DNA of 64,000 bases from Chara braunii (lineage: Eukaryota > Plantae > Charophyceae): contig BFEA01000028.1 in the NCBI GenBank assembly GCA_003427395.1, positions 3,823,665 through 3,887,664 of the forward strand. Direction: 5' to 3'. Numbering within the stretch: position 1 is the first letter of the stretch; each line of letters begins with the position of its first letter. The notes under the pieces are model-generated. The model had not been told where the DNA came from. It made no database searches and saw nothing but the letters and a program-made list of their open reading frames with translations. Both the position numbers and the translations under genes were made by a program. Positions 7,257 through 57,447 of the stretch are shown here, one piece after another.

Positions 7257-7291
<35 letters not shown>

Positions 7292-7324
7292 AAAAGAACT
7301 TCCTCTGCCCGTGTACCTCCAGAG

Positions 7325-7378
<54 letters not shown>

Positions 7379-10120: not shown

Positions 10121-10167
10121 TAACCTACAAGGATGGAAACACAGGAAGGGATTGCACTAAAACGGAA

Positions 10168-13458: not shown

Positions 13459-13559
13459 TGATATATAGTTTAACTATATATGAATGGAAGCTCAATGACA
13501 AGTAAATGGTACACCAACACGCACGAAATGAGGCATTCTCAGCGACTTATCCTATTGGT

Positions 13560-18990: not shown

Positions 18991-19136
18991 AGGCAGCCTC
19001 GTCACTAAGGAGATGCTGCCTTATCACTATCTGGAACTTTTCTGCTCCTCGTGCCATGCCAACGTTGTGCGCCTTCTGATTTTTTGCTTCGCGGTGATGT
19101 GTTGTGTTGCTTTCAGATTAGGCAGCGCTACAAAAC

Positions 19137-22100
19137 ATGGAAGGAGAGGGGAAGGCAAGTAAACGACGAGCAAGTAAGAATTCAGGAAGCATGGAACAAT
19201 CTCCGAAAAAATCGAAGGGGACGCCGGCCGCAGGGGATGGGAGTCTGGAGGCACCGGGGTCTAAGCGGCAACGCACCTCGGTTTCGAGGGGTGCACCTTC
19301 CACGGGCACTCCGTCGACTCGTGTTCGGGGCTCTGGACCGGATAAGGCTGTGTTGATGACTGTCGGGCCTGAGGGTCAGGAACGTGTGCCTGGTCCACAG
19401 CAGGGGAGATCTGCAGTGGAGGTTATGCCCGGACGCAAACCGTCTGGAGAACGTAAACCGTCTGGCGAAAGTAAACCGTCTAGTGAAACGACTGCCGCGG
19501 GTCGGCGAGACGATGTTCCCGTGATTGACCACAAGGACAAGTTCTGGATGTTGGACTGGGTGGGGGAGACCGGACAACCATCGAGTGACCTTGTTCTATA
19601 CGTGGTCATCAAAATGTGCCGGTTGGCGGCCTGGTGAGGTGGACTGGGCAAAATGTGCCGTTTGCAACTTTCGAGTTGACGATGGTCCTGAATGGAAGAG
19701 GGGAAAAAATACCAAACATTAAACACGTCGCTCTTCGATGGGCCAAACACGCGGGGTTTGGAAAGTCGCTGGTTGATGTGTTCAACCCACCAGGGACATT
19801 GGAAGTGAAGTTGCCTAAGCTCGTTGACGTCCTCGGGTTTTTCGACAGTAATGTGATCGCGTGCAGAGAGCCGGTTGTGCATCCAGAGGACCGCATATCA
19901 GAGCCTAAATGCGTGCTTTCGAGAACCGTGGAAACAGGGCCTTCGATCACGATCCGCGATACCCCGCCTGGTCCGAAAGCTGGGCAGATAGGAGAGAAGG
20001 GTCCGTGCCGCGGACTGGTCGTACCGTCAGCCCCTATGAAGACCAGGCCAACGACGACCAAAACACCAGTTGCCTTGGGCAGCCGATCGCGCTATGATGT
20101 GGCCACCAAGGGACATCTCCCCTTGGTGGGCCAGCAGCGCTATGACTACACTGTGTCGGGCCTCGTAGAGGAAGTCCATGAGTATTTTGAAGATGAGGAT
20201 GAAGAGAACAACGAGGAATATTCGGAACGAGCAGGAGGAGAGGAACAGTACGCTGCGGGTATCGGGGGCATGACAAGGCATCCAGGAGAGACATGTAAAG
20301 TGGTTGGACAGGATGAAGACAGTGAACACACTGTGAGCACATCTGGTGGGGAGGTTGGTCTGGCAGGAGGATATGGGAGCAGCTACGAAGTATATGAGGG
20401 GGATGTGCACGCGACAATGGCTGTGGCTGGGCATACAGATGCTGCAGGGCTCGCTGAGCGAAAGAGGAAGCACAGGCGGGAGAGAAAAAGTCTTATGGAT
20501 AATAAACGGAGTAGGCAAGAAGCGAGTGAAAAAAGACGATTGAAAAAGCAGCTGCGAAGAAAAAGCAGCAGCCAAAGAAAATAAAGGCAAAAGGTGGTGT
20601 TATGGAAAAGACTTCTGTTTTTCCAGCGGAACAACCACAATCGGATGAAGAGGCCAAAGGTAAGACAGTTACTAGGCCGCCAAGTTTGCGAAATGTGCCA
20701 TCAATGACTTCTTCTGGTGTTCTTAGCAAAGGTTTTTTCCTTGAGTTGGACGAGCATGGGAACCAATGTCTAGACATGGAATTCATTTCTGTCCAGTTCG
20801 ACAGAATTCTGGATATCCCCAACGGGGAATTCAGATACAATCAACGCTATCTTGTGCAACAGACGGTTGACGACATTTATGACGCAATGATTGCATCGGG
20901 TGAGGCTGCTATGAGAGAGAGAATGACTGGAGCTGCCGGTGTGAATGTCTGTACGTTGTATGAGAAGCCTGTCCTTTTGTTGGTTGCCCTCCGTGATACA
21001 TTGCATACTGACGCTTTATGGAAGATTGTGAGAGCAAGGAGAGTGTTGCCCGATGATTTCGATATCGAATCTGTGAACAAGTACTACTACTACCCTCTTA
21101 GCGGTCAGCATAACGTGGCGGCGGCAAGAAGGTGTTTTGTTGAACGCCCTGACATCGCACAAGAGCTCCGATTGGATCGCTGGACTGCGAGGCCTGTTTA
21201 TTATCCGGATAAGAGCATGGACAATTACGGCATGCTGAGCACTTTCCAGAGCTCCAAGGACAAATGGAATACCCCACCGCACCAGAACGTGGTCGTCCAG
21301 AACGTACGGAAGTTGTGGCACGAGTCGAACTGTCCTGAAGCTAAAGGCGGCTTAGCGACAAAAGTGAAAAATGCAGAGTATAGAAAGTTTGCGGGAGAGG
21401 TTCTTCGTTTGACCGGGATTCGTAATTTGATTGAGATGTCCCTTACTACTTAGTGGAGCGGCCAGTGGTCTGACGCCCTCGGGCCCTACATGTTGTTGGC
21501 AAGGGCGACAGATGACGTTTTCGAAAAGGTGAAACAAGTGTACGCCGCTTGGGAAGCTGGACAATTGTCGGGGAGAGATGTTGTGAAGCCTGCTACCAAA
21601 CAAGGTGAATCAGGGAAGGCACCGAGGGCTGGACCCGGATTTGAGTTGAAAGGTAGAGTTAGGTATTCGGTTCACTGGGTTCAGGGTACCAAAGGACCTG
21701 GTTACCTCGTGGCTGTACACGATCCGGATATCAAAGCGTGGAAGTGTTTTTCAGCGCTTGGGAGGCGTGAGTGGCTGCAACTGTTGCGAAACATTCTCAC
21801 AGACAGTGTGATACTGACTCCTAAGCGAAGTGGAGCTGCTGAACGTGCCGGAAAACATTCAACGGAAACATATGTGGAAATGGTGAAGATTGAAAGAGCA
21901 ATGTTGAGGATGTTTCACTACTTCGTCTTCATTGCTGACCCTCACAGGAAGTCGTCAGAGTGGACGGAACCATTCTTCAACAACCTTTCCGATTTGTTTG
22001 ATAAGTACTCTGATGAAGGATTGACGTCCGAGAGGTGGATCGACCAGCGTCGCCATTTCAAAGAGATGAGTTGGGTGCGAACGTTCCCGGCTACACTTGG

Positions 22101-24970
22101 AGGAGAGGAGGAAAAAGGAAAAGAGGGCTTCAAGAAAACAGCGTCACTTGCTGCGAAGTGCCCCCAAGAGTTCGTGCAGTTTATCAACAAGCTGCTGCGC
22201 AGATCAGAAACCAGGGGTTCGAAAAGTATAAGAATGTCGGGCTCGGCGCAATATATACATTTAAAAAAACAGAATGTGAACTCTGTTTTCGTCCCATTCC
22301 AACGGGAACCAAACGATATTTCAAACGAGATGGATTCCAAGAAAATATATAGAGTCGTAAAACATCTGTGTTGCCACACGGCCGTGCTGGATTTATGTCA
22401 CCCAACCCAGATAAGGGTGTGGACTGAAGAAGTCTTTGATGGTCTGCGTAAGTTCATGGGAAAATTGGCTGGTGATTATTGGACATTATTGTGCTTCGTT
22501 CCGCGGTCTTGCGAGTATACATTTTTCAAGCGAGTTACAAGTTGGGAGATTGACATTCACTTGTCTATTCTAAAGTAGACTCGTCAGCTACAAACGAAGG
22601 CGAAGCATTTATATAAGGTTGCGAACTTGCCTTTGGAGGACACATACATAATGGCTGTCATCATGTACTCCAACGATGGGGACTATCACCGCAACACTAT
22701 TCCCTTGCTTGAAGACATTCCAGCAAGCACTCGAGAAGAACTTCACGCTCACGAAGTTGAAAAGGGCAGGTATGGAGCCAAGGGAGAAATTGGTGTACGA
22801 AGGTATGGAAAGGGAGCCAAATGCGATGGTGGAGACATTGGAGCATTTTTGTCCTGCGGATGAGGCGATTGTTTTCATGGGAAAAGGCCATGCGGCGTTG
22901 ATTTGGGAGTTGTTAAAGAGTCACCTTCATTGCATTATTCTGGAAGGGGAGGGTATAAAGTTCAAGTTTCTCGTTCAATTCGTCACCAAGATGGTCAAGA
23001 GTGGACTTTACCTCGCCAAATTTGTTAAGCCGCCTCGTCGACATGATGAAAAGCGTGATCTCGTCTACAAAGTCGGCAAAAACATCGTCAACATTTGGGA
23101 GTTATTTTTCGAGACTAAGCCAAAAAACAGAGGGGAACGTGTATATGTCGTCAAAAGGCGAAAAATGAAATTACTTCTGAGGGGGTATCATAAGGCACCG
23201 GCGGAGACGGAAGTTGCATTTCTAGACCGTTTGGAGATGATGTACTTCGACGAACAAATTGGGGCGTTTACAATCGCAGCTTATGCAACTTGTTTTGGGG
23301 AAGGCTTCGATGCTGAGGACTCAGAGGAAGAAAGTGAAGATGGTACTTTGCAAGCGGCTTTGGCAGATGAGAGGCAAAAAGCTTGTAGCTCAGCTTCGCA
23401 GAAGATGGGTGCGCCAGGCACATCGTCCGGTTCTGGGGGGGCTTCGAGTATGGCAGTTACAACGGACCAGTTTCCACGGACCAATTACATGGCGGGCAAC
23501 ACAACAGCGCTATCTTTCGGCGCAGTTCGGGATGATCCGAGGCTGCAGGCAATTCTCTCCCAGAGGTTATGGCAAGTCTGTCAACACTTGCACATAGCCC
23601 GGCTACTGTTTTGGAATTGCTACGCTCTCAAACTTCTCAACCACCTCCGTCTGAGCCTTTGGAGTACGAGATTGAAGACATAATCCCTCCGGACTTTGCA
23701 CGGCTTCCTGGACCTATTGTGTGCTGGGACGATTATACGGTGATGCCTGACAACGTATGGGGTCATCACATTATATGGCACCCCCACCACTTCCAACCTG
23801 CATTGGCGAGAGAGAACTGGGTAATGGCTATAAAAGAAGAAGGGGAGTGACAATTTTGCCTCCACAAACGATGTCACGATCCAAGTTTGTCGCACACGCC
23901 AAAAATGAGATTGGCAAGCGACTACTGCGACTTAATCCGAAGGTTTCTCAATCAAGACTGGAAGCAAGGACATAAGAAATTTTTGAGGAGTTCAAAACAT
24001 CTCGATGGCTTGAGTATCTGAAAGAGTTCTATGATCGAGAAACAAGTTCAACTTTTGGATATAATTGGCGTATCGAAGAGGAACTTGAAGACAAAGTTGG
24101 GGAAAGGAAAGGAGCGAGCGGCGATGAGAGTGGCAAGGGATCAGGATCAGGCGGCGGTGCGCTTGGCAAGGGAACAAGGTCAAGTGGTGGTGAACATGGC
24201 AAGGGATCGGAACCACTGGGCGGTGCCAGTGGCAAGGGCCTGGGACCGAGCGTCGGTGCAAGTGGAAAGCCAATAAGTCATGGTGAACTGCAAAAATACG
24301 AAATGTGTCAAGGACGTCAAGCAACAAAGGGAAAGGTATCAGGGCCAAGCGGCGGTGCACATGACAAGGGATCGGGTTCGCCTCTGGGATTAGGACCAAG
24401 CAGCGGTGCACATTGCAGGGGATCGGGTTCGCATCTGGGACTAGGACCAAGCGGCAGTGCACATGGCAGGGGATCGAGAGGCGATGCAAGTGACCAGGAT
24501 TTGGGAGGAAGCGGCGGTGTAAGCGTCAAGGGCGTAAGTCATGGAGAACTGCCGAAATGTGTCGAGGACGTCCTTCCGGATGACCAAGTTTGGGCGACCA
24601 CTGTGTTGGCGAGCGAGAGTGTTACTGCACAAGTGGATAATACTGGTGCACTTGCAGAATTAGAGATGCCATTGGATATGCCAACTGAGAAAGATAAACA
24701 TGAAGTCTCTCTGGACATGAAGAATGAAAGCGTGACTGCAGGTGCGAACGAAACTGCCAATGTACAGGCCATCGAAGAGGATGAAGGACATATAGTACTA
24801 AGTACACGGGAGCAACATACGCTTGTACAACCTGAACTTATGGTTGCAAAATCAGAAGCACAACAGTCTGCTAACCTCGTGATATCTATCGACGAATCTC
24901 CTTTTACACCATCGCATAGTGCGATAGAAGATTGTGTTGAAGACAAAGTGTTAGTGAACCACCGAGGTGA
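19137..24970 (+). pseudogene. Large disrupted cargo ORF (~1,900 codons) with ParB/Srx-like and beta-class amino-methyltransferase-like segments
   Basis: Abutting ORFs 19137-19637, 19616-20584, 20602-21453, 21490-22578, 22627-22863, 22676-23683, 23569-23850 and 24303 onward join by single stops or frameshifts. ParB-like: QRYLVQQTVDDIYDAM...KPVLLLV...YYYYPLSGQHNVAAARR. MTase-like: EREPNAMVETLEHFCPADEAIVFMGKGH...LHCIILEGE. Domain calls are by eye. Confidence 0.6.
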
Positions 24971-25611
24971 GCACGTACTTATCTCTAAGGGAATATCTAA
25001 TACTATATGCGGATTAGGGGGTACATGCACTCATCTCATAGGAACTAATTTTTTGCCTAAATTTGCAACCGTGCGCTCGGTCATGAGAAAAAACGAAGTA
25101 GAATATTGTGTATCTCTTATTTGCAATTATGTGGAAAATTGAACTTAAACTCATAATGTTTTGTTTTGTCAATCATTGTCGTTTTATATTGCTGAACATG
25201 CAGGTCGACGAAACGAACTGTGGAAAACGACGCACATACATTCGGAAAGGCAGAGTGAGAAAAATATTATTCGTCGTGGCTTGCAAGCCTTATCGACTTT
25301 GTCGTTATTGCCCAAAAAAAAGAGAAGAAGACTTACACCCATGACATTTCCATCTATGAAGCCAGCTGCCCTAAGGATGTTTAAAGTTGTTGGAATAAGC
25401 CTCAGGGAAGGGAAGAAATTGCATCGCGAAGGTTGCAGTTTATCTATTGTGGATGACAGCTCTGATAGCGAAACAGATAGACAACAAAAAACTTGAACTC
25501 GGGTCTACGTCGTACATCACATAACGAAAAGTTCATTTTTGTATGAAGTCTTAGTCGTTCCATTGTTGTTTATATGTGTGTTTGTATGCAGTGCATGACT
25601 CTTTGTTCCAG

Positions 25612-26394
25612 ATTCCTTTAGCAACAAAACGCCTCACCGTAGAAGAAAATGAGTATCTTGACATGATTACAGGCAGCAGCGAAGACAATGAAGCATACGA
25701 CATTGTCGATTACAAGGGGAGCTGGAAGGTGGGAAAGGAAGACATCATGGTCGTCGTCGAGGATGGGAAATGGCTAAATGACGAAGTCGTCAATTTGTAC
25801 ATGCTAGCCGTCCAGATCACCAATGATCACATCAAGGTTGATTCGGCATGTACATAAGTGACAAGAGATAGGGTTCCTTTTGTGTACATTTTCGATTCAT
25901 TTTTCTTCATTCGATTCTCAAGTCCTTCGAGGTTTGAAACCGCATATTCCGAAGGGATGAAATGGGTGAAGGACACAAATCTTTTTGATTATGACTTAGT
26001 GATTATCCCTCTTCATTTTGGAAATCATTGGGCGTTAGCTTATGTCAGCATAGACGGTCCTAACTGTAAATTTCACATCATAGACTCTCTCCCTCGTGTT
26101 GACTATGTTTCAGTCCTTGAACGTTTGGAAGATTTTTTCGAAGCGGAGCTTCATCGATACAATCTTCGCGAAAGATATTATGTGGACGGGCCTACATCCT
26201 CCTTTGATACATCAGTGGATGGGATTCCTGCTCAAGAGGATCCTTATAGTTGTGGTGTTTTTATGTTAGGTTTTGCATCTTTGCTTGCAAGAGGTCACTT
26301 CCCTCCATTTGCTTTCTCACAAGCCAACATTTCTGATATGAGGCTTAGAATAGCATTTGACATTTTGTTCATGGTTAGATACGAAAGTCAATGA
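25612..26394 (+). pseudogene. Ulp1/SENP-family (peptidase C48) SUMO protease domain, with one in-frame stop (25855-25857)
   Basis: GKWLNDEVVNLYM, FDSFFF, LFDYDLVIIPLHFGNHWAL (His), IIDSL (Asp), IPAQEDPYSCGVFML (Gln/Cys); putative acceptor ttccag ending at 25611. Confidence 0.88.
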
Positions 26395-27933
26395 GGTGCG
26401 ACTAAAGCTACAGTCCGTAGTTAATATTTTGTTGATGAGATTGACATGTTTACTGAGTGTAAACATTCGAGGTAAAAACTTGACATTGTATTATATTTTG
26501 AGCACAGACAACACAAGAGCATGACTGTCACATTAATTTTTCCTCATTGCTTTGTCGTTCCTTCAACTTTGCATTGCTATGAATTTGTTTCGTCCTTATT
26601 TTGCTTTGTCGTTATTTCGATTTGTTATTATTTTGCTTTGTCGTTATTTTGCTTTATCGTTATTTCGTCTATAATTTCCTCATTTCGTTCTGCCATTTTA
26701 CAGTTAAAAAAAAAAGTAAAGATGAAAACAATTTCAATTATAACGAAAACACCGTTTATTTTAACTATCAGTCATGTACTTATACAGACCTAGACCCTGT
26801 ATAACACCAGCCTAAGTCGACTAATTGAAAACGTTTTCAGTAAACTTAGTTTTCTTGTTTGTGCAATGACCTACTCATCTTTCCATAGCGCCTCGCTAAC
26901 TATTTTAATAACCCTCTTCTATTATATGACGCCTAAATACACTACAAAAAAAATGCATAGGATGTATTTCTCTAATGTATTTTCGTACTTCTTTTATTCC
27001 GTAAAACTAGTGATTTACTATGTCCTCCAAACATACTACAGTGCCTACTTTGTTCACCCTATTAGGCCCCGCCTATTGCATCGAGTCAATTGGACTTTGT
27101 CGAAGGATCTCTTCAGCATTTTCTATTTGTGACAATAACTTTCCTATCTCAGTTTATAAGTCTTCGATTCGCGGGACATTCCTTTGGGTCCAATTAAACC
27201 CGAAAGCACTCACCCGCCCTTCTACTAAGAATTATTGTTCTTAATTCTTAGGTATTTATGAATTTTTATAAATTAGATGAGATACTAGTTTATGTTTGAA
27301 CTTCGGAGTCGCAAGTATGAGCGACTTATTTGTTTTCAAACTTTTAAGGTTTTCTTTTGAAAACTTGATTTCTTTTTTTAATAAAAAATAAGTTAATCAT
27401 CAACATACCCAATTGTTTGAATCTCTACTCAAACTCATTATCTCTTAAAAATGCAATTTGTGCGTTTTTACTCATCTTGTCACATTCAACATTTACTTAC
27501 TATGAGAACCAAAATTTGAGACTTTGGAAGTGTTATCGTGAAACTTTGTTATACAGGTACTTTAATAATGTAACATTTGCTAAAAAATATACCGATTTAT
27601 ACAAATTAATGGAAGCTTCATAAAATGTGCATATAGTATCAAACATTCTTTCATGAGATTCGTAATCAGAATGATTTGAAATTATAGTCAAACAATAAAA
27701 GACCAATTATTTTGCACAACACTGTATACTCTCTTTGAGTGAGAATTATTTGATTTTTTAACTATCAAAACTCTTAGTTTTAAAATAAGAGCAGAGGTGC
27801 TAGCGGATAACATTGGTTGAAATACCTTATTAAGCAAAATTATTGCGGAACTTGCCATTATGTGACAATCTAATCATCGTAAATGCATAAAACGTTTTTT
27901 GTTGAATATAATTTTTTTATAAAAGTCTGATAA

Positions 27934-28110
27934 CCTCAAGGGTAATGAGCATAAAGGATCGTTTTACCTTATTATAATTCTTCTATGAATTGAGCAGTAA
28001 AAAATATTTTTTTCTTGCATATAAAATATTGTGAAAGTCTCATGGCCTTGAGGGTAACGAGTATAAAGGATTAATTTACCTTATTATAATTCTTCTATGA
28101 ATTTAGCAGT
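27934..28110. repeat. Two-copy ~112-bp tandem repeat
   Basis: agggtaa.gag.ataaaggat...ttaccttattataattcttctatgaatt.agcagta occurs twice. Confidence 0.8.
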
Positions 28111-28749
28111 AGAATTGTTATGTTTAATATTTGTTTTCCTACTTTCTTCGGAGCCTTAATGGTCATCAGTAAAGTATAAATAATTGGTTTTTCCATCACT
28201 AAAACACCCTCATTCCGCTAAAAAAACCTTAAAAGTTTGATCAAAGTTTATGAAAAGGTTATTGCCATAAATTTATACATATAGCCTAGTGAAAAGATAA
28301 GTCTTCATTTTTTTCGCCTCGAGTTTATCTCACTTCTTGTTTATTAACATGATGTTTTTTTTTTCTAATTGTTTTTTTTTAAAGGTTTTTTGTGAGAACC
28401 TTGTTGTATAACTTGAGTACATTCTCTTATAGTTTTTCTCAACAAACTTCAAACTTTAATCAATAGATCATTACCTCTTTAAAGTTTTTAATTCTCAATC
28501 TCGTTCACTTTTGATTAATTCTTCATCTTTAACATTTTCATCAAGTAAGAGTCTCGAATGAATACGTGGTTTAACGGAAGGAAATCTCATAATATTGATG
28601 ATTTTGATATGCCGACATCACTATTTCATTTCACCTTATTGTGAGGGAATGTCACCAAAGTAATCGTTTTGCATATAAAAACATATCGTACAAAATCGTT
28701 ACTGATATATATTTATGGTGGGGATACCTTATTGTTGTCATTAAGAAAA

Positions 28750-31195
28750 ATGTCCAGGGGTGCTGTGGTGGAAACCGTAGCTAAAACTGACGTGCAAATC
28801 GTTCGTCGAACAAGGTATAAGGGCTAAGGGTTACTCAAACTGTTTAGTAGCTTGCGCCGTAATTTTTTTGCGAAAGTGACTGAGGGTGTCGGGTAGACGG
28901 ACCAGACCACGACGACTACCTAGAGGTGCGTTAATTGAAGGCGACGAATGAGGTAACCACGGTGGAGGGGGTGAAGAAATGGAAGCTTGAACCTAGGGAC
29001 GAAGCGACGTTGGATGCATGTAGACGAAGGTGAGGGTGGTGCAGGCGGGAATGACGGAAGGGAGAAGTTGGGTATGGTGAGGGAGAAAACCGATACCTCG
29101 CTTGATTCTTAACAGAATCAGGCGAGGAGAGATGCAAAATAGGGGTTTTTTGGGAAGGCGAAATAGTCGGTAGCTTTAGTCTAAGTGATAAGACAGTGGG
29201 TTAGTAGTTATGGAGGAGAAGATTGTGTGTGAGACACTGTACGTCGATGGGGACAAATGGTTTTCGGGTAGGGCGGCCACAATTTCGAGGTCAGAATTAG
29301 TAAAGAAATTAGTAGGAGATGAATTAGTAGAGAAGAGACATGCGAGAAGATGGCGGAGACAAAGGGGAAGATGCCGATGGTGGAATGAAAACACATAGTT
29401 TGCTCGATTCTTAGCTCAATTGAGCGAACCACGTTGCTATCTAGGGGTTTGGGGGGTTTGCGAAGAGAACGAGTGCCGCAAATTTTGGGTTTCAGCAGCA
29501 GATTAGGCGGTATGGCCAGCAGGGGCTGCTCTCGGTAGTGAAGCTTAGCAAAGTGCTAATGCACCTAACCGGCTCATAGGGAGGGATACATTCTCATTTA
29601 GTATGCACTGGAGGGATGTGAAGAAAAGGAAGTGTTGGTCTTCCTTGTTAAGATTGATTGTGCTAGTCCGTGTAGAGTAAGTAGTGCAGAAGAGAAAAAG
29701 AAAAATGAGTTGCTCGTCAGAACATAGGCGCGCTTCGTCCTGGTGATCGCTAAAGGCGATCGACTCAGTGGTGTTCGTTCTCATGGGAACGATCTTCGTG
29801 GTCATTTCCAACATCGTGATAAATTATCACGATCATTGTGGGCGGGCTTATCACTGTGCTGATCATGGTTAATGCTACGCCCTCGCTCACCCCAGTCTAT
29901 GGCCACGTATTTGGTGAGTATCGGAGTTGCACTGTTGAAGCCCCTCCTAGTGGTCGCATGTTGCCTAATCTCCGACTCGTCATTACGAACTCAATTGAGG
30001 TACGTTTCCCGCTCGTGAATGCAACCTTCGTTATCAAAAGTGTCATTCCCATTTGCTGGTCATTTGCATCGGACAATAATGTATATTTCCGCATTATAGC
30101 AAAATGTTCATTTTCAATCCGAGGCTTTAGTGACTGGCGATAAGATGGCTGCTCGTGGTGAACGATCACTCCTAGTAATCGTCGTCGTCCCGCTCATCTA
30201 GATCACGCCGTTGTTCAACAAGCTCAACCTGACGGTCGACTTTTGTTCCCTCATCGTCACGTCCGTTTTGGTAGCAGTGGGCTTACCATCAGTCGGCGAA
30301 GTTGCTATTCCTTTTGTTGAGGCTAAAGGTACAAACTGTTGTTGCAAAAACACGGAGTAGCTATTACTGCATAGTGGGGTGTTGTCGAGAGATGAATAAA
30401 TGCCCTACAATTGTACTTTGGTTGTTGTTGGATGTTGATGTGAGGTTGAGCTTGTGATTGACCCATGCAAAACTGAAAGAGTTCACTTGCGGTAGCGAGC
30501 GCATGCTTGCACTAACTGTGAATTCACTGCCTCGACCTTCCATTGGTGGTATCAGAATGGGGGGGGCACACTAGTGAATGAGGGAGAAAGTTACACGAGG
30601 GGAGAAATCTTCTACATGCCTGATTAAGAATTGTTTGCTGCGATCGAAGGGGGCGTGAAGCTAGCCACGTGATTGAAGACTTACCCGTTGGCAGGTGCGC
30701 TGCATGCCATAATGAGCAAAGCAACTGCCAACGATTGTGGGACGTTGCAGCCTTATTTGTTGGTTAATGTGCTGATACCCCCAATAGTCCAAGTAGTGTG
30801 AGGCGCGCTGTGGGCTTTAGACTTGCCTGTTAGCCCGTGCGTTGGCCAGCCTATTGGCAGCACTGAAGTGAGGCCAGTCACAGAGGTTGGAGTCGCGCCT
30901 GCTGACTTTTACGCTATTCACTCCGCTGGTTGAAGCAATGCGAGTTTAGCTGCGGGATAGATACATGCCTGACTGTGTCTTTGACCAAGTTCGTGGCGGA
31001 GGCGAGCCGGGGGCTTGGAGGGATAGTGAACCCGACTACGCCAGTGGATTCTGCGTCTATGGGAGTAATTAAGTTGCGTAAGGGAGTTGTTGCTGCAAGT
31101 TGGAAGGTCGTAAGAGAGTCAACGACTGAAAGTTTGACTTCAGTTGACCAAGTTGCTGTGAACTCTGGCCGCTATTGAGGGGCCCTCAAACGCAT
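28750..31195 (-). pseudogene. Possible decayed long ORF, antisense to the putative LTR element
   Basis: GC-elevated block in an AT-rich background with successive protein-like minus-strand segments broken by stops; no domain recognised. Confidence 0.3.
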
Positions 31196-31684
31196 CAAGG
31201 TTTAAAAACCATCTCACGCGAGTCAGAGTACACCTTTCTTGGATCTGAGCGACTAAGTGTTTTTTCTTCTACTCTTCTTACTCTCAGTCTAGTATATTGG
31301 TTTGGAGAGGAAGGCGGCTGGTGGGATTTGAACCCGTAATCCGTGCCAAGGCCTCTGTGAGAGGTTGCCCCACCGATTGTGGGAGCTCTGTCGGGACCTA
31401 GGCGAGGTTTTGGAGGCAGGGAACAAGGTGATAATCTTCCTCCCCTTCTATAAACCCGGTTAAAACCCTTACTTGTACATCTTCATACAATTTCACTAAA
31501 TATACTGCATGCATCCCTATTGAGTTTATGTTTGGTTTTCTGTACTTAAATCAGAGTTAAAATAATGTATGCGCAATCTCAGTTTTTTTTTTTTGGTTGT
31601 CTAAAGTCAGATTGAAAAAGGGTTTGTGAATTGGGGGAAGGCAAGAGGAAAGTGGTTTTGCTTGTGATTGTCTAGTCAACCAAA

Positions 31685-32468
31685 GGGCGGGCGTAGTTGC
31701 TAAGTTGAATGACCCAGTGTTATGTTTATTTAAACTACCAGAGGACCAAACTTTGTTCCTAAGTTGGATGGTCCGGTTGCTTTGACTTGTGAGGGCTCCA
31801 TGCGATTGTATTTTTCAGAGACCAAGTTTTGTTTCTAAGTTGAATGGCTTGGTCGCCTTGGTTTATTTTTGGATTTTCTGCGTGGGAATGAACTTCGTTT
31901 CTGAGTTGAATGACCCAGTTTCCTTCTGTTTCTTTATTTTTTCTGAAAAAGAAGGTTAGGCCTTTGTTTATAAGTTGAATGACTTAAACTACCTTTTTGT
32001 TTACTATGAGGGAAATTAGGTGACAAACCTGACATTGTTTCTAAGTTGAATGGTTTCGTCTGGAGCCAGACACATGTTGGAAAAAAACAATAGTTTTATA
32101 TATAATTTATTATTATTTTACTCATGAACATGCTAGTCATACTTTGTTTATAAGTTGAATAGTCTGACCGTAGCTTATCATAATGAAGAGAATACAAATT
32201 AAGAATATTAATTGGTGGTAAGATGAGGCAGGTTGAACTTCGTTTCTAAGTTGAATGCTTCACTCCTGTGCTACCTTAAAAGATTAAGAGCAGAAAGGTA
32301 TGTATAACTTGGCTATTTAAACAGTTAAGGTGACCAGGTTTTGTTTCTAAGTTGAATGGCCTAGTCATATGCCCCAAAAAAAAAAAAGTATGAGCGCCTC
32401 TTTGTTTGTGTATATTCAATGACAAAGGTAGACTTTGTTTCTAAGTTGAATAGTCTGACTCTATGTCT
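31685..32468 (+). repeat. Array of 10 stem-loops with conserved loop TTGTTTCTAAGTTGAAT, variable complementary stems and unique spacers
   Basis: Core (T)AAGTTGAAT or a one-mismatch variant at 31701, 31760, 31836, 31902, 31971, 32042, 32151, 32247, 32348 and 32442; most copies are flanked by their own inverted repeat. Confidence 0.85.
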
Positions 32469-32759
32469 CATGTAAGATGGGTAAAAAAATATAAATCGTT
32501 GAGGGACAATAAACTATTGTAGACAAGGTTTAACTTTGGGATTTGGTGAGAGTACTTACCCATTGTGGTTTAGACGTGTGTGTGGCCGAGTGAGAGTTTT
32601 ACTTAGTATGAGTTTTCGTTTGATAGGTAGTTGCTTTAGTTGCTCGCTACGTGCTACAGCTCTATGAGTTGGTTCAATTCCTGCATTATGTAGGTTAACT
32701 TTATTTTACTTAGTAAAGTTATTGCATTTTCTGGGATCATTTGTTTTACTTGGCTTTGT

Positions 32760-33385
32760 ATAAAAATTTGGAAAGCTACTTTCTCTACAGGAAGCGCTGC
32801 CGACATTTCTATAAAACCAAAAAGTTTATCAAATTTTGACTTTTCAAGGTTCAACTTTGTATAAGTTTTATATATGGCTTAGTAAAAATCTGAAAAATCT
32901 TCTTTTTTATTGGGAAGTGTTGTCTGAATTTTTACTAATCAAGGGAGTTCGACAAATTTTGGCTTTGCGAAGTCATAATCATTCTCGAGTTTTGTATTTT
33001 ATTTTGTATAAATTTTGAAATGACACTTCTCTGGAGGAAGTGCTGCTAAAATTTTAACAGATCTAAGGAGTTAGTTAAAATTTTGTCTTAACAGAAACTG
33101 AAATCTTGTTTCGAGTTCTTATATAACTTAGTATAAATATGAGAAGTCTACTTCATAAAGGAGATGCTGCCCAAATTTTTGTTAATTCAGAGAGTCAACA
33201 AAATTTGACCCTATAGATTTGAGAACCATTTCAGTTTTTATATTCATATGAATATCAATTATAAGAAGACATTTTTGCAACGGAAATCGCTGTCGAAATT
33301 TTCTTAGTTTAAAGGAGTTATATTATATTCTGATAGGAAAGATTCTGGCGATTCACCCTAAGAAGGGGAGATGCTGTTAAAAAAA
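32760..33385. repeat. Degenerate ~123-bp tandem repeat, about 5 copies
   Basis: gga(a/g)..gctg....aatttt-like motif at ~32790, 32912, 33036, 33160 and 33282. Confidence 0.7.
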
Positions 33386-33435
33386 AATTCTTTCTTTAGG
33401 CACCTGCTTATTCAGACTTAGTTAAGGGAGGGATT

Positions 33436-34955
33436 TGAGCGATACATGATATGGGGTTTATTCTTCATGCACTTATAAGTTTTAGTCTTGGGGATTGGTC
33501 TGTCTTATGTCACAAGACCTCTTTTGATCATTTCGATTCAAGATCTGAGTAGATTCAGCTTGATCCCACGAGGATCATCTTCTGTTATCACTGATAACAA
33601 GTCGATTGTCGATTCGTCCGTTCATGACTCAACTCTAATTCACTCTCGCTACTCAACCTAAAGACCTTAACCCCTGTGGTTTGAATTATTTCGTTATGGT
33701 TTTCATGCAGACTTTATTGAATGACCAATTAACAAAGATACGAAGTATTTTATTATGAAAGGTTGGACAAAGGTTGAAGCTTCTGTAGCTAAAACGAGGG
33801 GTGTGAGCACATAGAGTGGTTGAAGCTGACCACGTGTAATGCTTGGACTTCTGGTTGAATCTTTGATGTGATTGCAGGTATGTTTGTGGTTCTGACTCTA
33901 GATTTGGCTGCCTGCGATCACACATATACATGGTTGAAAAAAGTCTTATTGTAATTGTGAGAAGTGATCGTCTCGTGTTGTATAACCCTCTATATACATA
34001 TATATCTCGAGTGTCCTCACGACCTCATGCGACCGTGTGTAAAGGCTAAACTGATTTTGCGTTTGAGAAGAAAGAGAGACTTTTTTTCCCTTTTGGTTAT
34101 AGACTGATTATAGTTGGAAGTTGAAACCTATCTACCACCCACTCTCTACAAGGTGCAGAAGAGCGTGTGGTTCTCAACCTGCTCGCGATTGCCTTGCGTC
34201 GAGAGATTAACCCCTGTAGGCGCTTGTTAGCCGATACTTGGGTGTCGGACGTAACCGTCGAGACCACTGAGGGTCATGCGATTATGAGTACTACATAGTA
34301 TTCATGTATGGCTAGTCGGTATGAAAAGGCCTAGCGTCCGCGCAGTTTTATCGTAAGTCTCACGTGCGACATAGAACCAATTTCCATCTCAAAAGATTAT
34401 GGGTCGAACACTAAAGGGACTACGAGTGTTTTTATTGTGTGAGTTATCTGACTTTTTGCTTTGACGTGGTGTAGAGCGTGGTAAAAAAAATATGTTTTAG
34501 TCGACTTACGACGAGTCGCTATTGGGACTTCAGCCCCCCATGGCGTCGCTTCACATACGGGTCCGATAGAGGTGTGAGACCGCTCGTACCTTTTATGCTA
34601 CAGCGTACGAAAAACGCCATCGGTTGGGCCACCTCTGCAATTGCAACTGATTAACTTTCGCATGTGGTTCAGTGGCTCGATGGGGATATGCCCACCTAAG
34701 GGATGGTGACAGCTCCCGCATATGGAGGTAAGTTGTAACTCGTGTGGGCCTATCCTGCCGTAGGGGATTGCGAGAGGTATGGCTGACATACTCAGCTAAA
34801 GCGGCAACGAAAGCTCCATTACACCACGATAAAGGATAAAGACCTGCACAAAATCCTGCGTGACGTGGCCGGGAGGGTTCCCCTGCGGGACCGATGCACT
34901 CGATAACGTATAGTAGATTAAAGTAGAGTAGAGTAGCGTAGAGTAGAGTATCGCA
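33436..34955 (+). mobile_element. Putative 3' LTR (~1.5 kb) of an unidentified LTR retroelement
   Basis: Purine tract AAGGGAGGGA at 33424-33433; termini TGAGCGATAC...GTATCGCA (TG..CA with GCGATAC/GTATCGC inverted repeat); TATA-like tatatacatatata near 33990. No second copy in the window. Confidence 0.4.
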
Positions 34956-37304
34956 AATAAGAGTCTGAATTTCGGTCGTTCGGGTGTTCGAGCTGTCTTG
35001 ACTTGTCCCGACCTGTCTTCGATAACATTGGTTATATGATCATTAAATCTTTGTTAAAATATGACATCTTTAAGCAAGTGTACAACAACAAGACTAATCA
35101 CCAAGATTTGGTTGCGATGTAAAACATATTTTTCTCTATTCAAATATGATATCTGAAACCACTAATACATTTACCATTGTTGGGAAATTACATCGAAACG
35201 CTTGTTCCCGAAAGATTCGGGGGTGGGACCCAGGGTCTCATAAATCGTAGTTTTACATTCCCCATGTGTGAATGGAAAAGGAAAAAAAAGAAAATGCTTT
35301 CTTTATTTGCAATGATGTCGGGCAATGTAGTTTAGGAAGCCATGCTCACAGTTTTCATTCAAATAATCAATCTTACAGCTAACACGATTACGTTTTGAAT
35401 GTTGTTGTTTTTATTTTTTTTTTCACCCTTTTGTCTTTCATAAAGTCCCCTTCTCAAACTGTTTTTTCTCAAAGGATTGTAATGTTGATCATACTGACAC
35501 TTAGAATAATGTATCCAACCATTTTTACGACCGAATCCATGTTTCCATTTTTTTTTCCCTTCTTCTATTTTTATGGAATCGGACAACTTAGCCACGAGGT
35601 TGAGATGCCCTCAGTGAGGGCACATTCACACTACCACTTCCAACAATGTATACAACTTCAATCACGACAAAAAAATCATTTTCTTTATTTGTTATCTTGT
35701 ATTGCGAGTTTCACGACCACACCTTTTTTTTTTTGTTCTTTCAATGAAAGTACCGAAAAGAAAATGAGGTGAGACTCATACTTGGCAAACTCGGAGCGCA
35801 CTAAAGTTCAGACTCGACAAAAACAGACTCAGAGCTGCTAGTGGCTTAAGCCATAGTACAACAATATGACTAATCACCAATATTAGGTTGGGATGTTAAA
35901 CAAACTTTCATAGAAATCGCCTCAATTAATTGAATTCCGTATGTGAGGTGTGCGAATATCCTTCGTTGCAATCCTCCAGCCGACATTGAAATCCCTCTTC
36001 TGGTTCGAGTAGTTGCAACTCCTTCGACTGCATCACCGTCATTATTATTCCCCTTTAATCATAAATTGATTAGTCTGATAACAATAGGAAAATCAGAGAT
36101 GTAGTCTGGTTTAGTCTCAAAATATATGTTGAATCTAAACCAACAAGTGAGATACGTTTTTAGATTAACCTTTATGACTTAAAATACATATTATTAGACG
36201 TACGTTATTATTTTATTTATTTATTAAAAAATAATGGACATTCTTGTATTGCCATATCACCCTCTATGTAATAATCAATCCATAAGGTCATTGCACATAT
36301 CTTGTTCATGATAAGAGTGTCTAATCCAATTTAGATTATATAATACTAAATGTGTATCTTTATTATCGCTCACCATAAATTTGTGTCGCTAGTACTTCGT
36401 GTTAGATAAGGAATTTTCGTGTACCTCATCTCCTAACTCTTCTGTTCATGTATGCAATCTACAAATGCTACTTTATGTTCTCTCATTATAATTAAACTGC
36501 CTCCCATTTATTCGCCTTATACCGCCACTCCCCCCGACAACCGGAAACCCTTGGCCCTGTGAGTTAGGGTTGGGTTCTACAGAGAGACGACAATCATTCG
36601 TTACTGACGGGTCTAATCCTGCCATTTGAAAGCCGCCACTTTGACGATTTTTGTGCTCCGAATATTTTTTCAAAAATTCTGAAAATTTGAGGTTTCGTAG
36701 ATTAGGTCGTGATCTGTCGAGAAAAAATATCAGCAAAAAAAAATATTTTGACCGTGAAATAATCGCCTCGCCAATTCGGCGCGTTTTTAATTTTTTGTTC
36801 AAGTTCCATTTTTGCTATTTACTCGGTTTTTCACTCTATGCTACAAATGTCCCTAGTAAAACGACGCTACTGGTCCCCCGAGGTTTTTGACATCGGGGGA
36901 AATGGTGGTCTCAATGGTTACGTTCCCTTGCATTGCCATTGCATAAATAATACTAATAATATAATAGGAGTCGAACCATAATTGGCATAGGTTAAGTCAT
37001 CGAGGAAAACAAATCATTGGATGCCAATATAGTAGTAGTAAGGGTGTATGAACGACTTAAAGCATACGTACTTGACCCTTCCTTCAAAACATGCCGCTGT
37101 GTAAGAGGTGACTGTTATTTCGATGTATCGGCCTGCTTGCAACCAATTTGTTATGTACTCAATGAAAATATTTTCTTCAGAGGAAAATTGTCTGCTGGTG
37201 ATCTAAACTTGTTTTCACTATTCGCCATAATTTTAGATCACAAGACGAATAATGATACCTGCGTATTTATACCGCAATCCTGTTGAGATGGCGAATTCCC
37301 TCTT

Positions 37305-40644: not shown

Positions 40645-41266
40645 TGTGACGAACTGTTTTCTGTAACCGCGCGATTTTCTAAGCAAGGCTGCTTCGAGGG
40701 TTGAATGAGGAGGGCCCACGGGATTACATGGGTGCCCTTGCTTTCCTTGTTTTTCAGAATCGAGGCCGGGGTGATCTTGTGACGATTGGTAGCTGGTTGC
40801 GCCTTAGCGAGCACGAAAGATAACTCTTACCATAACTTCTTTCCTGTTCTGCTGTGGGAAATGAGAATTTTGGCGTGGTCGTCGTGTGGAAAAATCTTTT
40901 TGAACTTTTAACTGAAATCGAGCCCCTGTGAACTCTTGGAATTTTCTCTGGTCAAAATTTCTTTTTGCAATTAGGATTTAGATTGGGAATTTAGGCGCGT
41001 CTCAATTTTTGTTGCACGACGCTTCTTGCTTGCGTACGCCTTCCACACCTTTATCCTTGCGTGTAACTGTAATTTTTGTTTTGGCGGGCATAATTGCAAC
41101 CAGGGTAACCGGCGTTCGGGACGGGCTGAACGCCCGAACCCGAACGCCCGAACGTATGGGACCCCTTGGGGATGCGTTCGGCCGTTCGGGCCGAACACGG
41201 ACCAAAAAAAAAAAAAAAAAAANGACCCCTTGGGGATGCGTTCGGCCGTTCGGGCCGAACACGGAC

Positions 41267-41301
<35 letters not shown>

Positions 41302-42412
41302 ATCAAACAAATCTGAAAAAAAGATATGTTATGGAGAAAAATAAATTAAAGAAGATTTACCTGAGCATTACATCCGAATTCCTTACCAAATTTGAAATAA
41401 AAATAAAATGCGGAAAATAAATACTAATAATAAAAATAAATAAAAATAAAAATAGAATTAAATTTAGTGAGTGCGCGAGCATGTTTTTGACACCGCCATC
41501 TTTGGCGATTTTTTATTTTTTTTGGCATAGCTAAATGCCCTGAAAATTTACAGATGTGTACTTCACATAATAAAAAACCCACTAAAAAAGTTTCGAAAAA
41601 TAATAAAATTGTTTCGACCCCGAACTAAAGTGAAAACAAAAAGTAAAAAGTGAAACAATACGTGGGCGAGCACGTTTTGACACCGCCATCTTTGGCGATT
41701 TTTAATTCTTATTTGGATTAGCCAAATGACTTGAACATTTACAGGCATGTACCTCATGTCATAGATAACTCACAAAAAATAATTCAGAAAAAAAATAATA
41801 TTTTTAGACCCCGAAATAATTTTTGGCGGGGGCCGAAGGCCGTCGGGTTCGGACCCCGTACGGGACCCTGAACGCCCGTGCGTACGGAGGTCTGCCCGGG
41901 GACCTCCGTACGTACGGGCTGGTGACCCTGATTGCAACTGTAATCCTTCTGTTCTTGATATCTTTTGTGGCGTCCATGTGCGTGCGTACTTCTTCCTCTG
42001 TCTTAATTGGCCGGAATGCTTGCATGACTAGATCGATGTGTGGAGTGAGGCTGCGTCCCCCACGCCGCGGCCTACATGTAGCCATGCAGACGTAGGCACC
42101 TCCTTCCTCCTCCTTCTTTTTTCCACTCAACCACAACCCCGGGTATCTCGTGCAAGCATGCATGTTATAGTCTCACATGCTCTCTAAGAATTCTGGGAGT
42201 TAGCGTGGTCGAGAGGATCGACTAACGAGCGAGATTTGGAAGGTGAGTAGGGAGTTGGGCGATCCGACGAGCTGGTGCTGGGCATGCGGGGTTGACGTGG
42301 GGCTACGACGGACTGTCGCACACGGGAGAACCTGGTTGGCATACTCAGACTAAGTGGGGTGACAACTCTTTGTAGGTGCGAGGCGACGGATTGCCTGCAT
42401 CGCAATTTTGTG

Positions 42413-42502
<90 letters not shown>

Positions 42503-43351
42503 NNNNNNNNNNNNNNNNNNNNNNNNNNNNNNNNNNNNNNNNNNNNNNNNNNNNNNNNNNNNNNNNNNNNNNNNNNNNNNNNNNNNNNNNNNNNNNNNNN
42601 NNNNNNNNNNNNNNNNNNNNNNNNNNNNNNNNNNNNNNNNNNNNNNNNNNNNNNNNNNNNNNNNNNNNNNNNNNNNNNNNNNNNNNNNNNNNNNNNNNNN
42701 NNNNNNNNNNNNNNNNNNNNNNNNNNNNNNNNNNNNNNNNNNNNNNNNNNNNNNNNNNNNNNNNNNNNNNNNNNNNNNNNNNNNNNNNNNNNNNNNNNNN
42801 NNNNNNNNNNNNNNNNNNNNNNNNNNNNNNNNNNNNNNNNNNNNNNNNNNNNNNNNNNNNNNNNNNNNNNNNNNNNNNNNNNNNNNNNNNNNNNNNNNNN
42901 NNNNNNNNNNNNNNNNNNNNNNNNNNNNNNNNNNNNNNNNNNNNNNNNNNNNNNNNNNNNNNNNNNNNNNNNNNNNNNNNNNNNNNNNNNNNNNNNNNNN
43001 NNNNNNNNNNNNNNNNNNNNNNNNNNNNNNNNNNNNNNNNNNNNNNNNNNNNNNNNNNNNNNNNNNNNNNNNNNNNNNNNNNNNNNNNNNNNNNNNNNNN
43101 NNNNNNNNNNNNNNNNNNNNNNNNNNNNNNNNNNNNNNNNNNNNNNNNNNNNNNNNNNNNNNNNNNNNNNNNNNNNNNNNNNNNNNNNNNNNNNNNNNNN
43201 NNNNNNNNNNNNNNNNNNNNNNNNNNNNNNNNNNNNNNNNNNNNNNNNNNNNNNNNNNNNNNNNNNNNNNNNNNNNNNNNNNNNNNNNNNNNNNNNNNNN
43301 NNNNNNNNNNNNNNNNNNNNNNNNNNNNNNNNNNNNNNNNNNNNNNNNNNN

Positions 43352-43388
<37 letters not shown>

Positions 43389-43448
43389 TCACAAACAGAG
43401 ATGCCCGGTAAACCATAGGCATATATATATATATATCTGTATATATAT

Positions 43449-43519
<71 letters not shown>

Positions 43520-44819
43520 AGATGTATTGTGTTGATGAGGTTTTCTTTCATTCTTCTGATTAATTTCGGTATTGTCGCCGAGCGCCTTGTCCTTCTTTTT
43601 GATCGACATCTTTCGTTTTCCTTGCTTCCCTTCTTCAGAGACTGACATATGGATTGTTTTTCCCCACTCCCCGTCTCTGTCTTTTTGAATCGGCAAATCT
43701 GATTGATTGGTTTCCAGAGATCGAGCCTTGTGTGATCTCTGGGCTGATTGGCCAAGGAATTCTTGCATGATCCTCGGTTCTCTCTGTTTGTATGTAAGCT
43801 AGATGCATGATAGGGGTGGTTCTGTCTGTGTATGAATTGGATAGGCATGCTAGACTATTAGATGACCGTCTCACTATAGGATGATCCATCTCGCGAATTG
43901 CTTGCTATGTGGTCGAAGGACAGGTCTCCCGTTGCACGTGTAGGCTCGACCAAACACGATCGCTGTCTACGAGCGCGTCTGCGAAACCTGAACTCGACTT
44001 ATTTCCCGAATGACTGATGTTCCACCATGGCTCGCAGCATGAATTTCAGCCTCCCTTTTGTGTCCTCGAGTGCTTGAGGGATCTGGAATTCCAGGGATAT
44101 TGGGAACACTATTTTTAGCCTGCACGACCTTGGGCGGAACCAACGGAATTTCCCTACTTGACGGGGAACGACGTATTTGCGAGTGGGACCTCGACCATGC
44201 CTTGGGACGTAACCCCCATCTCCCCATTTACTCTAGCCCATACACGTTTCACGTCCTCACGAGGCCCAAAATCATTATCTTAGGGACGGAATTCCCTCCT
44301 TATCACCGCATCCTACCCTACCGCTCCCTAACCATCGTCCCCTGGCTCGCAATTGCTCCTGACTGTCCCCAACCCCTGTGCTCAGAGTGTCTGCGGGACC
44401 ACGAGTACTAAGCCTCTGGCCTCATCCGACGAACTCATTCGGAGGAAGAACGACGGGCGCATAGTCTTAGATTGAGGCCAGCCACGTCGGGTTCGGGGAC
44501 TTGAGACGTTCGACGTCGGCAAGTGACGAATCAGCGGGATACCCATACGATCCCGCTAGTGCACCAGATGCGACCCCGACCTGGACGACGGAACCAATAG
44601 AGTCGGTAACTCAGCCCCCCCCTCCCCCCCCCTCTTCTATGCAAAACGGAACTCCAGTCCGCCCCCACCCTCCTGCATTCGCATCTTAGGGCTTGTCACA
44701 TGAGATCTCAGTTCCGACTTGGGACTCCACCCCCACTTTTCTAAAATCCTTGGCACACCCCCTTTTCGCACTTCCAGAGCCACTCACACTCCGATCAGGA
44801 AGTTGTGCCGGGCGCGAGG
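40645..44819 (+). mobile_element. Probable solo LTR of the Ty3/gypsy family at 47776-59877, in opposite orientation; 3' end lost in an N gap
   Basis: Starts TGTGACGAACTGTTTTCTG and is colinear with the reverse complement of the other two LTRs; no gag/pol on either side. Confidence 0.85.
41101..41930. mobile_element. Non-autonomous hAT element nested in the solo LTR
   Basis: TIRs CAGGGTAACCGGC / GCTGGTGACCCTG; 8-bp TSD ATTGCAAC at 41093-41100 and 41931-41938; the site is empty in the other two LTR copies. Confidence 0.92.
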
Positions 44820-45101
44820 NNNNNNNNNNNNNNNNNNNNNNNNNNNNNNNNNNNNNNNNNNNNNNNNNNNNNNNNNNNNNNNNNNNNNNNNNNNNNNNNN
44901 NNNNNNNNNNNNNNNNNNNNNNNNNNNNNNNNNNNNNNNNNNNNNNNNNNNNNNNNNNNNNNNNNNNNNNNNNNNNNNNNNNNNNNNNNNNNNNNNNNNN
45001 NNNNNNNNNNNNNNNNNNNNNNNNNGGCGATCTGCATGGAGGGCCGCGGCAAAGTCGCCGCCTCTCTCTCTCTCTCTCTCCAAGCGTTTGCATTTTGGAA
45101 C

Positions 45102-45145
<44 letters not shown>

Positions 45146-46946
45146 GAATGAATCTTCCGGCTTTCGTGCGACGATGCATTCCCTTTTTTNAGTTCCCTTT
45201 TTTTTTTTTTTTTTTTTTTTTCCCTNTTTTNTTTTTCGAATCTTTCAAGATGAGCTCCAGGATTTGAACGCCCGGTAGTTCNANCCTNGGGAACGGNCAG
45301 CNNATTGNTAGGCCGAGGCTCGGAGTAGATAGCTGGGCCAGGTACTGGTGGTTTAAGTGCCCCCCTGCTCTGAAGGCTCCATATATTGGTGGGGAGCTGC
45401 ACCTACTGGAAAACGGGTCCAGCGTTTCATCAAACCAGCAGTACTCCATAAAGTCGTGCCCGTTAACGCGCCACGATTTTAGAAAACGTACGGCCCACTA
45501 CAGGAGCGCCCAAATTCATCCATGTAGAAACGTTTCTACTCTATGTTTTCCCGTGGCCAATAGCTTGGCCAACTACTGGTGGTTTAAGTACATTGATTGT
45601 CTGCGACAAGCTGCTAGTCTAAGAGAGGATATCCCTGTCCCTTCGAGTGTCCCGTTTCCTACACACTGTTGCATTCGTCCTGCGTCCTCCTTTGTCCCAT
45701 ATTTTCCATTTCTGTTTCCCTCTAGGTTTCTTATCTCACCCACTCTTGAGCACTGTAGATCTCTGTCTCTACTACCAGAAGTGATAAGGCCTCTGCTAGC
45801 ATTTATGGACCCCGTTGCATATGTCAGTAGAGATCTGAGCAGTCTGATCACAGTGCTGTGCCTCTATTTCTCCTCGGAAGTGAGAACTTCACAAAGGAGC
45901 ACGATAGTAGGGGAACTATTGTGGCAGTAGCAACAGAGGGTAGGTCATCCAACGGAGGGTGCACCTGCCTCCAGCTTCCCAGTAATATATGAGCGAACCG
46001 CAGACCTTGATATCTTTCCCAATTTGATACGGTCATGATGAGGGTGTCTTGTACTTGGGGAAGATGGTGCTAGTTGTCTATTGGAGTTGTGGAAGTATCT
46101 TCTTAGGTCTTTATTCGGAAACTCCTGCACTAGTGTCTCCTGCTGTAATTGGGACTGGAACTTTCTTTTTTTTTTTTTTCTTTTTTTTTTTTGGGGGGGA
46201 GGACGATTGCTCCAAGCTATTCGTGGGGAGCAGCACGTGCTGGGAACGGGGCCCAGCACCCCATCAGAATCTTACAATATATGAGTTACCGGGGTCATTA
46301 CCCGGCTTCGGCTAGGAATTCACGTACTAGAAATTCTCAGGAAGATTCAAGCGAAAATCATGACTCACAGGGGCTATAGAAAAAGAACACAAGCCTTCTA
46401 CCCATAGGAGACTTCAGCCCAAAACCAAACTGCCTTGGTGACATTCAGCAGCCCAACACAAAACCTTCCTTAGCCTCCCATATCCTCAATACCCAGTCTC
46501 TGCCAGACCTCACACCCCCAACTGCTAGGTTAGAGAGTGGCGCGACCCACTCCAGAACAATCCCCACCTGCTGGGCTAAAGGGTGAAGCGACCCACCCCA
46601 GCTCCGAGCAACGTTGTCTGCGTACTACCGTAGCTTGCCAACAGACAGTAGAGTGCCTTCCACCCTCGACATCTCCCCAGATCTCTCTACCAGGCCTCTT
46701 GCCCCCATACAACTCGAGTTACAAAGTCCAGCAGGGTTGTCGTGTTCTTTTCTTCTCGGTACACAGTACTGGCTCGGTAGAGACTGGCTGGTTGGTATGA
46801 AAACGTGAGATTAGGGTTAGGGTATTATGTGAGTTCTGAGTAGATAAGCATTTTGAGTATTCAGCATCAATCTCTATTATCTCAATCATCCAGAAGCGTT
46901 CCTGAATCATCCCCAATTTTCATCAATCATCAATGTATTCCAATTA

Positions 46947-49239: not shown

Positions 49240-49273
<34 letters not shown>

Positions 49274-57302: not shown

Positions 57303-57447
57303 ATTGGCGGCCTGCCGACTTGTCGATCTACTTCGGGTTCTTATAGGGTCGTGGCGTGGCGCGTTCCTCTGCCTAAGACGCCCTCTGTTCACCAGATCGT
57401 CTCTTAAATCCTACCTGATTGGCAATATCTAGGCCTACCACGTGTCG

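Follow-up and report, generated by a model that had tools for sequence, protein, structure and literature searches.

The 64,000-nucleotide stretch of Chara braunii DNA analysed here (the window) harbors an array of ten small hairpin units, followed by a second array and a candidate 3' LTR (Table 1). Elsewhere in the window, a LOB-domain gene occupies 6016-6657 (-), its domain being closest to Klebsormidium and to bryophyte and fern proteins, and + strand ORFs at 10033-11199 give weak CXC and zf-CHCC matches; an inverted repeat of 216 nt (85%) lies at 10318-10810. A DUF7869 ORF (14200-15033, -) and a long ORF run ending in an Ulp1 (Peptidase_C48) domain (19589-26394, +) are probably DNA-transposon genes, and a degenerate 15-nt tandem repeat at 18268-18999 is open as a low-complexity reading frame. 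Further inverted LTR-related pieces are found at 40645-45420. A separate, decayed Ty3/gypsy element at 47784-59877 (-) has LTRs of about 2.4 kb that are 88% alike and retains remnants of a zinc knuckle, protease, RNase H and integrase; all 120 of its best longer relatives are proteins from Chara braunii. A tRNA scan found no tRNA genes.

The hairpin array is real. Scanning the 64-kb window with the 17-nt motif returns ten matches between 31694 and 32451, all on the + strand and spaced 59-109 nt apart, where 0.32 matches are expected by chance and ten were reached in 0 of 100 shuffles. The original prediction had described ten copies at this spacing, separated by unrelated spacers; the first part is borne out and the second largely so, since the spacers (24-74 nt) score z > 2.5 in just 3 of 36 pairs. 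Four copies of the core are free of mismatches, three carry one and three carry two. Mean pairwise identity falls from 0.90 for the core to 0.43 and 0.45 for the two 9-nt arms and to 0.27 and 0.31 for the outer flanks. When the ten copies, which themselves score 40.6-52.4 bits, were used to build a covariance model, it detected no eleventh unit in the window, the next-best score being 15.3 bits, and Tandem Repeats Finder reports no tandem array at the hairpins.

Table 1. Features of the array region. Each core begins at a start of the 17-nt motif; the last column gives the effect of family majority letters on the window copy.
Feature	Positions	Strand	Remarks	Family majority letters
PBS-like TGGTATCAGA	30547-30556	+	sole such motif in the window; no LTR copy before it
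Hairpin unit 1	31685-31719	+	core 31694-31710, 2 mismatches; stem weak in window copy	restore core at 31699 and pair at 31688
Hairpin unit 2	31744-31778	+	core 31753-31769, two core changes	restore pair at 31774
Hairpin unit 3	31820-31854	+	exact core 31829-31845; stem pairs 9/9
Hairpin unit 4	31886-31920	+	core 31895-31911, 2 mismatches; stem weak in window copy	restore core at 31896 and 31903
Hairpin unit 5	31955-31989	+	core 31964-31980, C7A variant; weak stem
Hairpin unit 6	32026-32060	+	exact core 32035-32051	restore pair at 32030
Hairpin unit 7	32135-32169	+	core 32144-32160, C7A variant	better pairs at 32169 and 32170
Hairpin unit 8	32231-32265	+	core 32240-32256	restore core at 32241 and pair at 32258
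Hairpin unit 9	32332-32366	+	exact core 32341-32357; stem pairs 8/9
Hairpin unit 10	32426-32460	+	exact core 32435-32451
Shared segment	32607-32688		summed contig depth 50,000-300,000, far above array
Second array	32735-33350	+	five head-to-tail units, 123-124 bp, 70% column identity
PPT-like purine run AAGGGAGGGA	33424-33433	+	function inferred from sequence; TG at 33436
Candidate 3' LTR (TG ... CA)	33436-35027	+	boundaries by eye

The arms that flank each core are free to differ between copies, and they pair within copies. In a gap-free alignment of the ten window copies, taking the nine pairs directly flanking the core (90 cells), 66 cells pair (73.3% versus 65.5% when shuffled, a level reached in 4 of 500 shuffles), 16 are double changes (3 of 500), and the covariation score of 0.509 lies above all shuffles (0 of 500). 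Registers slid by 1-3 columns pair in only 24-43% of cells, and left arms pair better with their own right arms than with permuted partners (P about 0.003). These shuffle P-values, like those of the simulations described below, are optimistic, as the copies are related and the tests treat them as independent. The covariation that had been proposed for the stems is upheld against shuffles, but RNAalifold predicts no consensus pairs for the ten copies. Likewise, the stems exceed shuffled flanks in pairing, yet the predicted energy of the complete 810-nt array, -179, is only about 1.3 SD better than that of 30 shuffles (-169 +/- 8) and not significant; folded alone, only four of the ten copies show a mean in-register pair probability above 0.6. 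The individual stems quoted in the original prediction are in register for copies 3, 7, 8, 9 and 10 but shifted for copies 2 (GGACC/GGTCC) and 6 (GACAAACC/GGTTTCGTC), and its remark that copies 1 and 4 have weaker stems is correct but omits copy 5, which is equally weak.

What would a single unit look like? We predict a hairpin of about 35 nt with a 9-10-bp stem whose sequence may vary and which is closed mostly by U-G; above it, the model places a UUGU/U internal loop, a 3-bp UUC/GAA helix and a UAAGUU hexaloop. U-G closes six of the ten stems, or seven with the family letter at 32452. The putative UUC/GAA cap helix inside the core is suggestive only: it pairs in 27 of 30 cells and shows a complementary double change in unit 2 (U-A to C-G), and it is broken in units 5 and 7 by the C7A variant. 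The arms also have a rough 5-nt periodicity, which gives rise to a second, shifted fold of two helices, in which AAGUU within the core forms an upper helix with the inner arm (46 of 50 cells) on top of a shifted lower stem. This fold pairs in 80.9% of cells, but its covariation does not exceed that of shuffles (242 of 500), and we therefore rejected it as the main fold in favor of the in-register one. It has the lowest energy for unit 2 only and may represent an alternative state. An H-type pseudoknot uniting both folds was rejected by reasoning, because its loop 3 would have zero length. A CRISPR-like reading of the array was also rejected, the organism being a eukaryote and the stems variable.

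The array belongs to a large, diverged, high-copy repeat family of Chara, in keeping with the original prediction. Comparing 31500-32700 at 80% likeness with contigs of DNA runs yielded 2,881 and 2,860 matching contigs in two runs, most of them less than 95% alike and about half less than 90%, the many diverged copies expected of the Ty3/gypsy class. The stretch occurs in four DNA runs, all from one study and possibly the source, so they are not independent. Summed contig depth over the array is 350-16,600, which is not a copy number, and the one contig identical to the window has a depth of 14-21. Other family copies differ in their spacers and in unit order, as seen from joints and inserted letters.

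The family letters bear directly on the hairpins. We considered the best-supported 40 of 574 differences, all 40 being majority letters, in columns that are unlinked and where reads of paralogous hairpins may align to the wrong copy. Among these 40, the four differences that fall in cores all bring back the motif letter. The nine that lie 10 nt or less from a core all preserve or re-create in-register pairing: five turn a mismatch into a Watson-Crick pair, three turn G-U into Watson-Crick and one turns Watson-Crick into G-U. That all nine keep pairing has a probability of about 1e-4 by letter chance. Two differences lie just outside the stems, one breaking the 11th pair of unit 6 and the other altering a mismatch. 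Because the majority letters restore both cores and pairs, the window copy is a decayed member of a family with better hairpins.

The strand on which the hairpins would act is less evident. The original prediction took G-T pairs as a sign of a + strand RNA; we find this a weak argument, because G-U cells (16 of 90) and A-C/C-A cells (11 of 90) both arise by decay, and RNA reads fall on both strands. The three G-U to Watson-Crick conversions are again drawn from the best-supported 40 of 574. Both strands can form the stems at similar energies, and the best pointer to the + strand, a hint, is the U-G closing pair in six of ten units. In one oligo-dT RNA run (X6), 440 of 16.7 million reads fall on the array region, two of them at 99% identity or more and 336 below 90%; a second (X5) contributes four reads. 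The RNA reads over the array come mostly from other copies. Among the indexed runs, none from RNA was listed as containing the stretch, which says nothing about expression.

What carries the array? The PPT-, PBS- and LTR-like layout (Table 1), together with a possible likeness to Tekay/Del elements, suggests the 3' UTR of an LTR retrotransposon. The PBS-like motif, which may or may not belong with the array, resembles a tRNA-Met PBS; the translation of 31050-31240, judged by eye, looks chromodomain-like as in Tekay/Del elements, which the 123-bp units of the second array presumably resemble as well. The region does have candidate PPT and PBS motifs for the retroelement 3' UTR originally predicted, but neither a second LTR in the window nor a protein remnant was detected. 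A blastn search of 26401-37300 against the window (word size 7) finds no second copy of 33436-35027, and this element copy may be truncated. PMC4029996, as far as its accessible text goes, supplies no sequence for comparison with the candidate LTR ends. Near the array, no protein match was obtained with Pfam in six frames read through with X, with tblastn of 120 Chara Ty3 proteins from another family, or with PDB, ESM Atlas and word searches, the antisense frame included. The single phmmer match (P0242), a bacterial repeat protein, was dismissed as spurious, many weak stretches adding up. Overall, we regard an LTR retrotransposon 3' UTR as the probable carrier, with appreciable doubt.

Several further observations concern the surroundings. 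The segment at 32607-32688 (~80 nt) exceeds the array's summed contig depth 20- to several hundred-fold and attracts the most RNA reads, about 3:1 with the first mate on +; it is likely a motif common to many more families. The second array consists of head-to-tail tandem repeats of the kind found in Ogre/Tat-type 3' UTRs; it was missed by Tandem Repeats Finder, and a partial sixth unit extends into the PPT-like tract. Its units 1-3 are predicted to form bulged hairpins of about 70 nt, and its consensus fold keeps only five pairs, without double changes. Imperfect, purine-rich inverted repeats at 29674-29716 and 31250-31284 (76-84%) enclose 1.6 kb upstream of the hairpin array; they could mark transposon ends or be fortuitous. 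The whole region is also bracketed by a perfect 13-nt direct repeat (27806-27818 and 35021-35033); chance alone would produce about one such repeat per 10 kb.

Could such an array arise without selection? A tandem repeat whose monomer chanced to hold an inverted repeat might decay neutrally into related hairpins, and hypervariable repeats are common in the 3' UTRs of plant LTR elements, as the accessible part of one study of Ogre/Tat repeats describes (PMC7004042). We simulated neutral star-like decay from three window copies down to the observed arm identity. Watson-Crick cells (50 seen, 34-42 simulated) and double changes (16 seen, 5-10 simulated) both exceed this expectation, with P <= 0.002 at kappa 2-4 and 0.004-0.05 at an extreme transition bias (kappa 50). 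The family's transition to transversion ratio is 278:201 (DNA run X1). Neutral decay fares best when G-U is counted and transition bias is strong, then reaching 63-67% pairing against the 73% seen (P 0.03-0.11). In favor of RNA helices, the stem changes are mostly A-U/G-U/G-C transitions, the route by which such helices usually change. Neutral decay cannot hold cores at 0.90 while the arms drop to 0.44, core identity in the simulations reaching at most 0.68, and Tandem Repeats Finder sees no array at the hairpin units. For the core, neutral decay is already largely refuted, and as an account of the array it is the least probable of those weighed here. Shuffles and simulations thus support the earlier claim that selection keeps the core fixed and the stems covarying, and the restoration of cores and stems by family majority letters reinforces it.

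Selection might nevertheless act on something other than a folded RNA. The 17-18-bp core could be a duplex-DNA site for an element-encoded or host protein, its flanks being complementary not through selection on RNA but because an inverted repeat in the ancestor underwent templated repair as the element was replicated or reverse transcribed. The direct orientation of every copy, the fixed core, the mostly Watson-Crick stems of the family majority and the weak strand evidence all suit such a site, as does the finding, in the portion of the source available to us, that VANC targets are often tandem repeats in non-coding regions of transposable elements (PMC5735166). Yet recognition of double-stranded DNA does not need covarying flanks, templated repair would yield perfect pairs where U-G closes six of ten stems and mismatches fall at varying places, and spacing is irregular (59-109) with unrelated spacers; we rate this reading as unlikely. 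Less likely again is a role of the hairpins on single-stranded DNA or an RNA-DNA hybrid during reverse transcription, where they might cause pauses, aid strand transfer or place RNase H close to the PPT. Both arrays do lie directly upstream of the PPT-like tract, the stems form on either strand at similar energies, and Sireviruses are described, in the passages accessible to us, as keeping multiple PPTs and an inverted repeat at the same place (PMC2829016), but a fixed, U-rich 17-nt loop exceeds what a pause signal needs and the core is not a purine tract. The alternative offered in the original prediction, a polycistron processed into small RNAs, here with the core in common, seems to us less probable still. 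Ten equal units in a single orientation would suit it, and a missing Rfam match excludes no new family. Conservation, however, resides in the loop, rather than in an arm of a long precursor hairpin as in miRNA polycistrons; Dicer-type precursors need longer stems than the 9-10 bp present here; and no piled read ends appear over the array in two oligo-dT runs, which cannot reveal small RNAs.

On balance, we favor a multivalent protein-docking site on the element's full-length RNA, serving export or packaging. Ten covarying stems would display one fixed RNA head ten times, and the repeated head would dock a protein that exports or packages this RNA. A head that is fixed, stems that are free in sequence but not in pairing, tenfold repetition and unrelated spacers together suggest a design for multivalent protein binding; RNA structure formation, + strand action, an LTR carrier and protein binding are inferred. 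The position of the array just upstream of the PPT-like tract, like that of 3'-located retroviral transport elements, leads us to favor a role in export or stability, with Gag packaging as the next most likely use. Conserved secondary structure, a property of export and packaging elements, is seen here computationally, in covariation and family letters. More tentatively, and with doubt outweighing confidence, the array may be nature's version of the MS2/PP7 arrays built by engineers: a series of modular RNA aptamers, at least ten interchangeable hairpins with one 19-nt head, on which Gag or a host RNA-binding protein would nucleate to form a particle for export or packaging. Such hairpins might also alternate between closed-cap and open-heptaloop folds.

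A multivalent docking site would have partial counterparts among known systems. In retroviruses, Ty1 and musD, cis-acting RNA export and packaging signals have been mapped in detail, and the MPMV CTE is a further retroviral RNA transport element. Alphavirus, coronavirus and MLV packaging signals comprise several hairpins with variable stems and a shared loop motif; the Chara head, by comparison, is longer, at 17-19 nt against 3-6, and is found close to a PPT-like tract, not in the 5' region. Like the musD MTE, the MLV PTE and the HIV-1 RRE, the last of which has more than one binding site, the array would be a structured cis-acting retroelement RNA that acts via protein binding (PMC5767303, as far as its accessible text goes). 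Whereas those transport elements are single large folds, the Chara array consists of ten small, independent units with an identical head and unrelated spacers. It would share its position in the element with Ogre/Tat 3' UTR tandem repeats, as these are presented in the available sections of PMC7004042, but lacks a fixed monomer and keeps only core and pairing: its units are not joined head to tail, given spacers of 24-74 nt, flanks 27-31% alike and no array in Tandem Repeats Finder. Sirevirus motifs, too, are short, conserved and clustered upstream of the 3' LTR with divergent linkers, but the Chara core is no purine octamer and no CGG-CCG palindrome, and covarying stems are not reported in the portion of PMC2829016 available to us. 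VANC targets of VANDAL DNA transposons similarly repeat a motif in a non-coding part of a plant transposon, with protein recognition, in the part of PMC5735166 consulted, at the DNA level, where covarying flanks are unnecessary.

The array is apparently undescribed. Rfam gave no match in it; within 27000-37000, the two weak matches both lie outside it, with E-values of 1.9 and 4.4 and scores well short of the gathering thresholds, the latter being mir-1422 on unit 2 of the second array. Neither the motif nor its reverse complement occurs in the full-text literature searched, and concept searches of that literature found no description, though repeat libraries, subscription papers and supplements lie outside their scope and may mention it. 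The literature searched likewise yielded no export or packaging RNA signals for plant or algal Ty3 elements. Exact-match scans, which say little about other plants, returned no matches in viral contigs for a 19-mer and none in prokaryote genomes for the exact pattern. A 16-mer gave 60 single matches in viral contigs, none arrayed and the best at 31.2 bits against the 40.6-52.4 of true units, which we attribute to chance. The one metagenomic match to the two-copy pattern (L061) is an unrelated, stemless short duplication in a bacterial ribosomal-protein operon, where 81 nt are duplicated in tandem (3001-3096) between the genes for L14 and L24.

The docking-site reading lends itself to experiment: one 35-nt unit could serve as a pull-down probe, the number of units can be titrated, and natural compensatory variants already exist. 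If it is true, some 3' UTR repeats of retrotransposons in the plant lineage would be selected RNA devices and not merely by-products of recombination.
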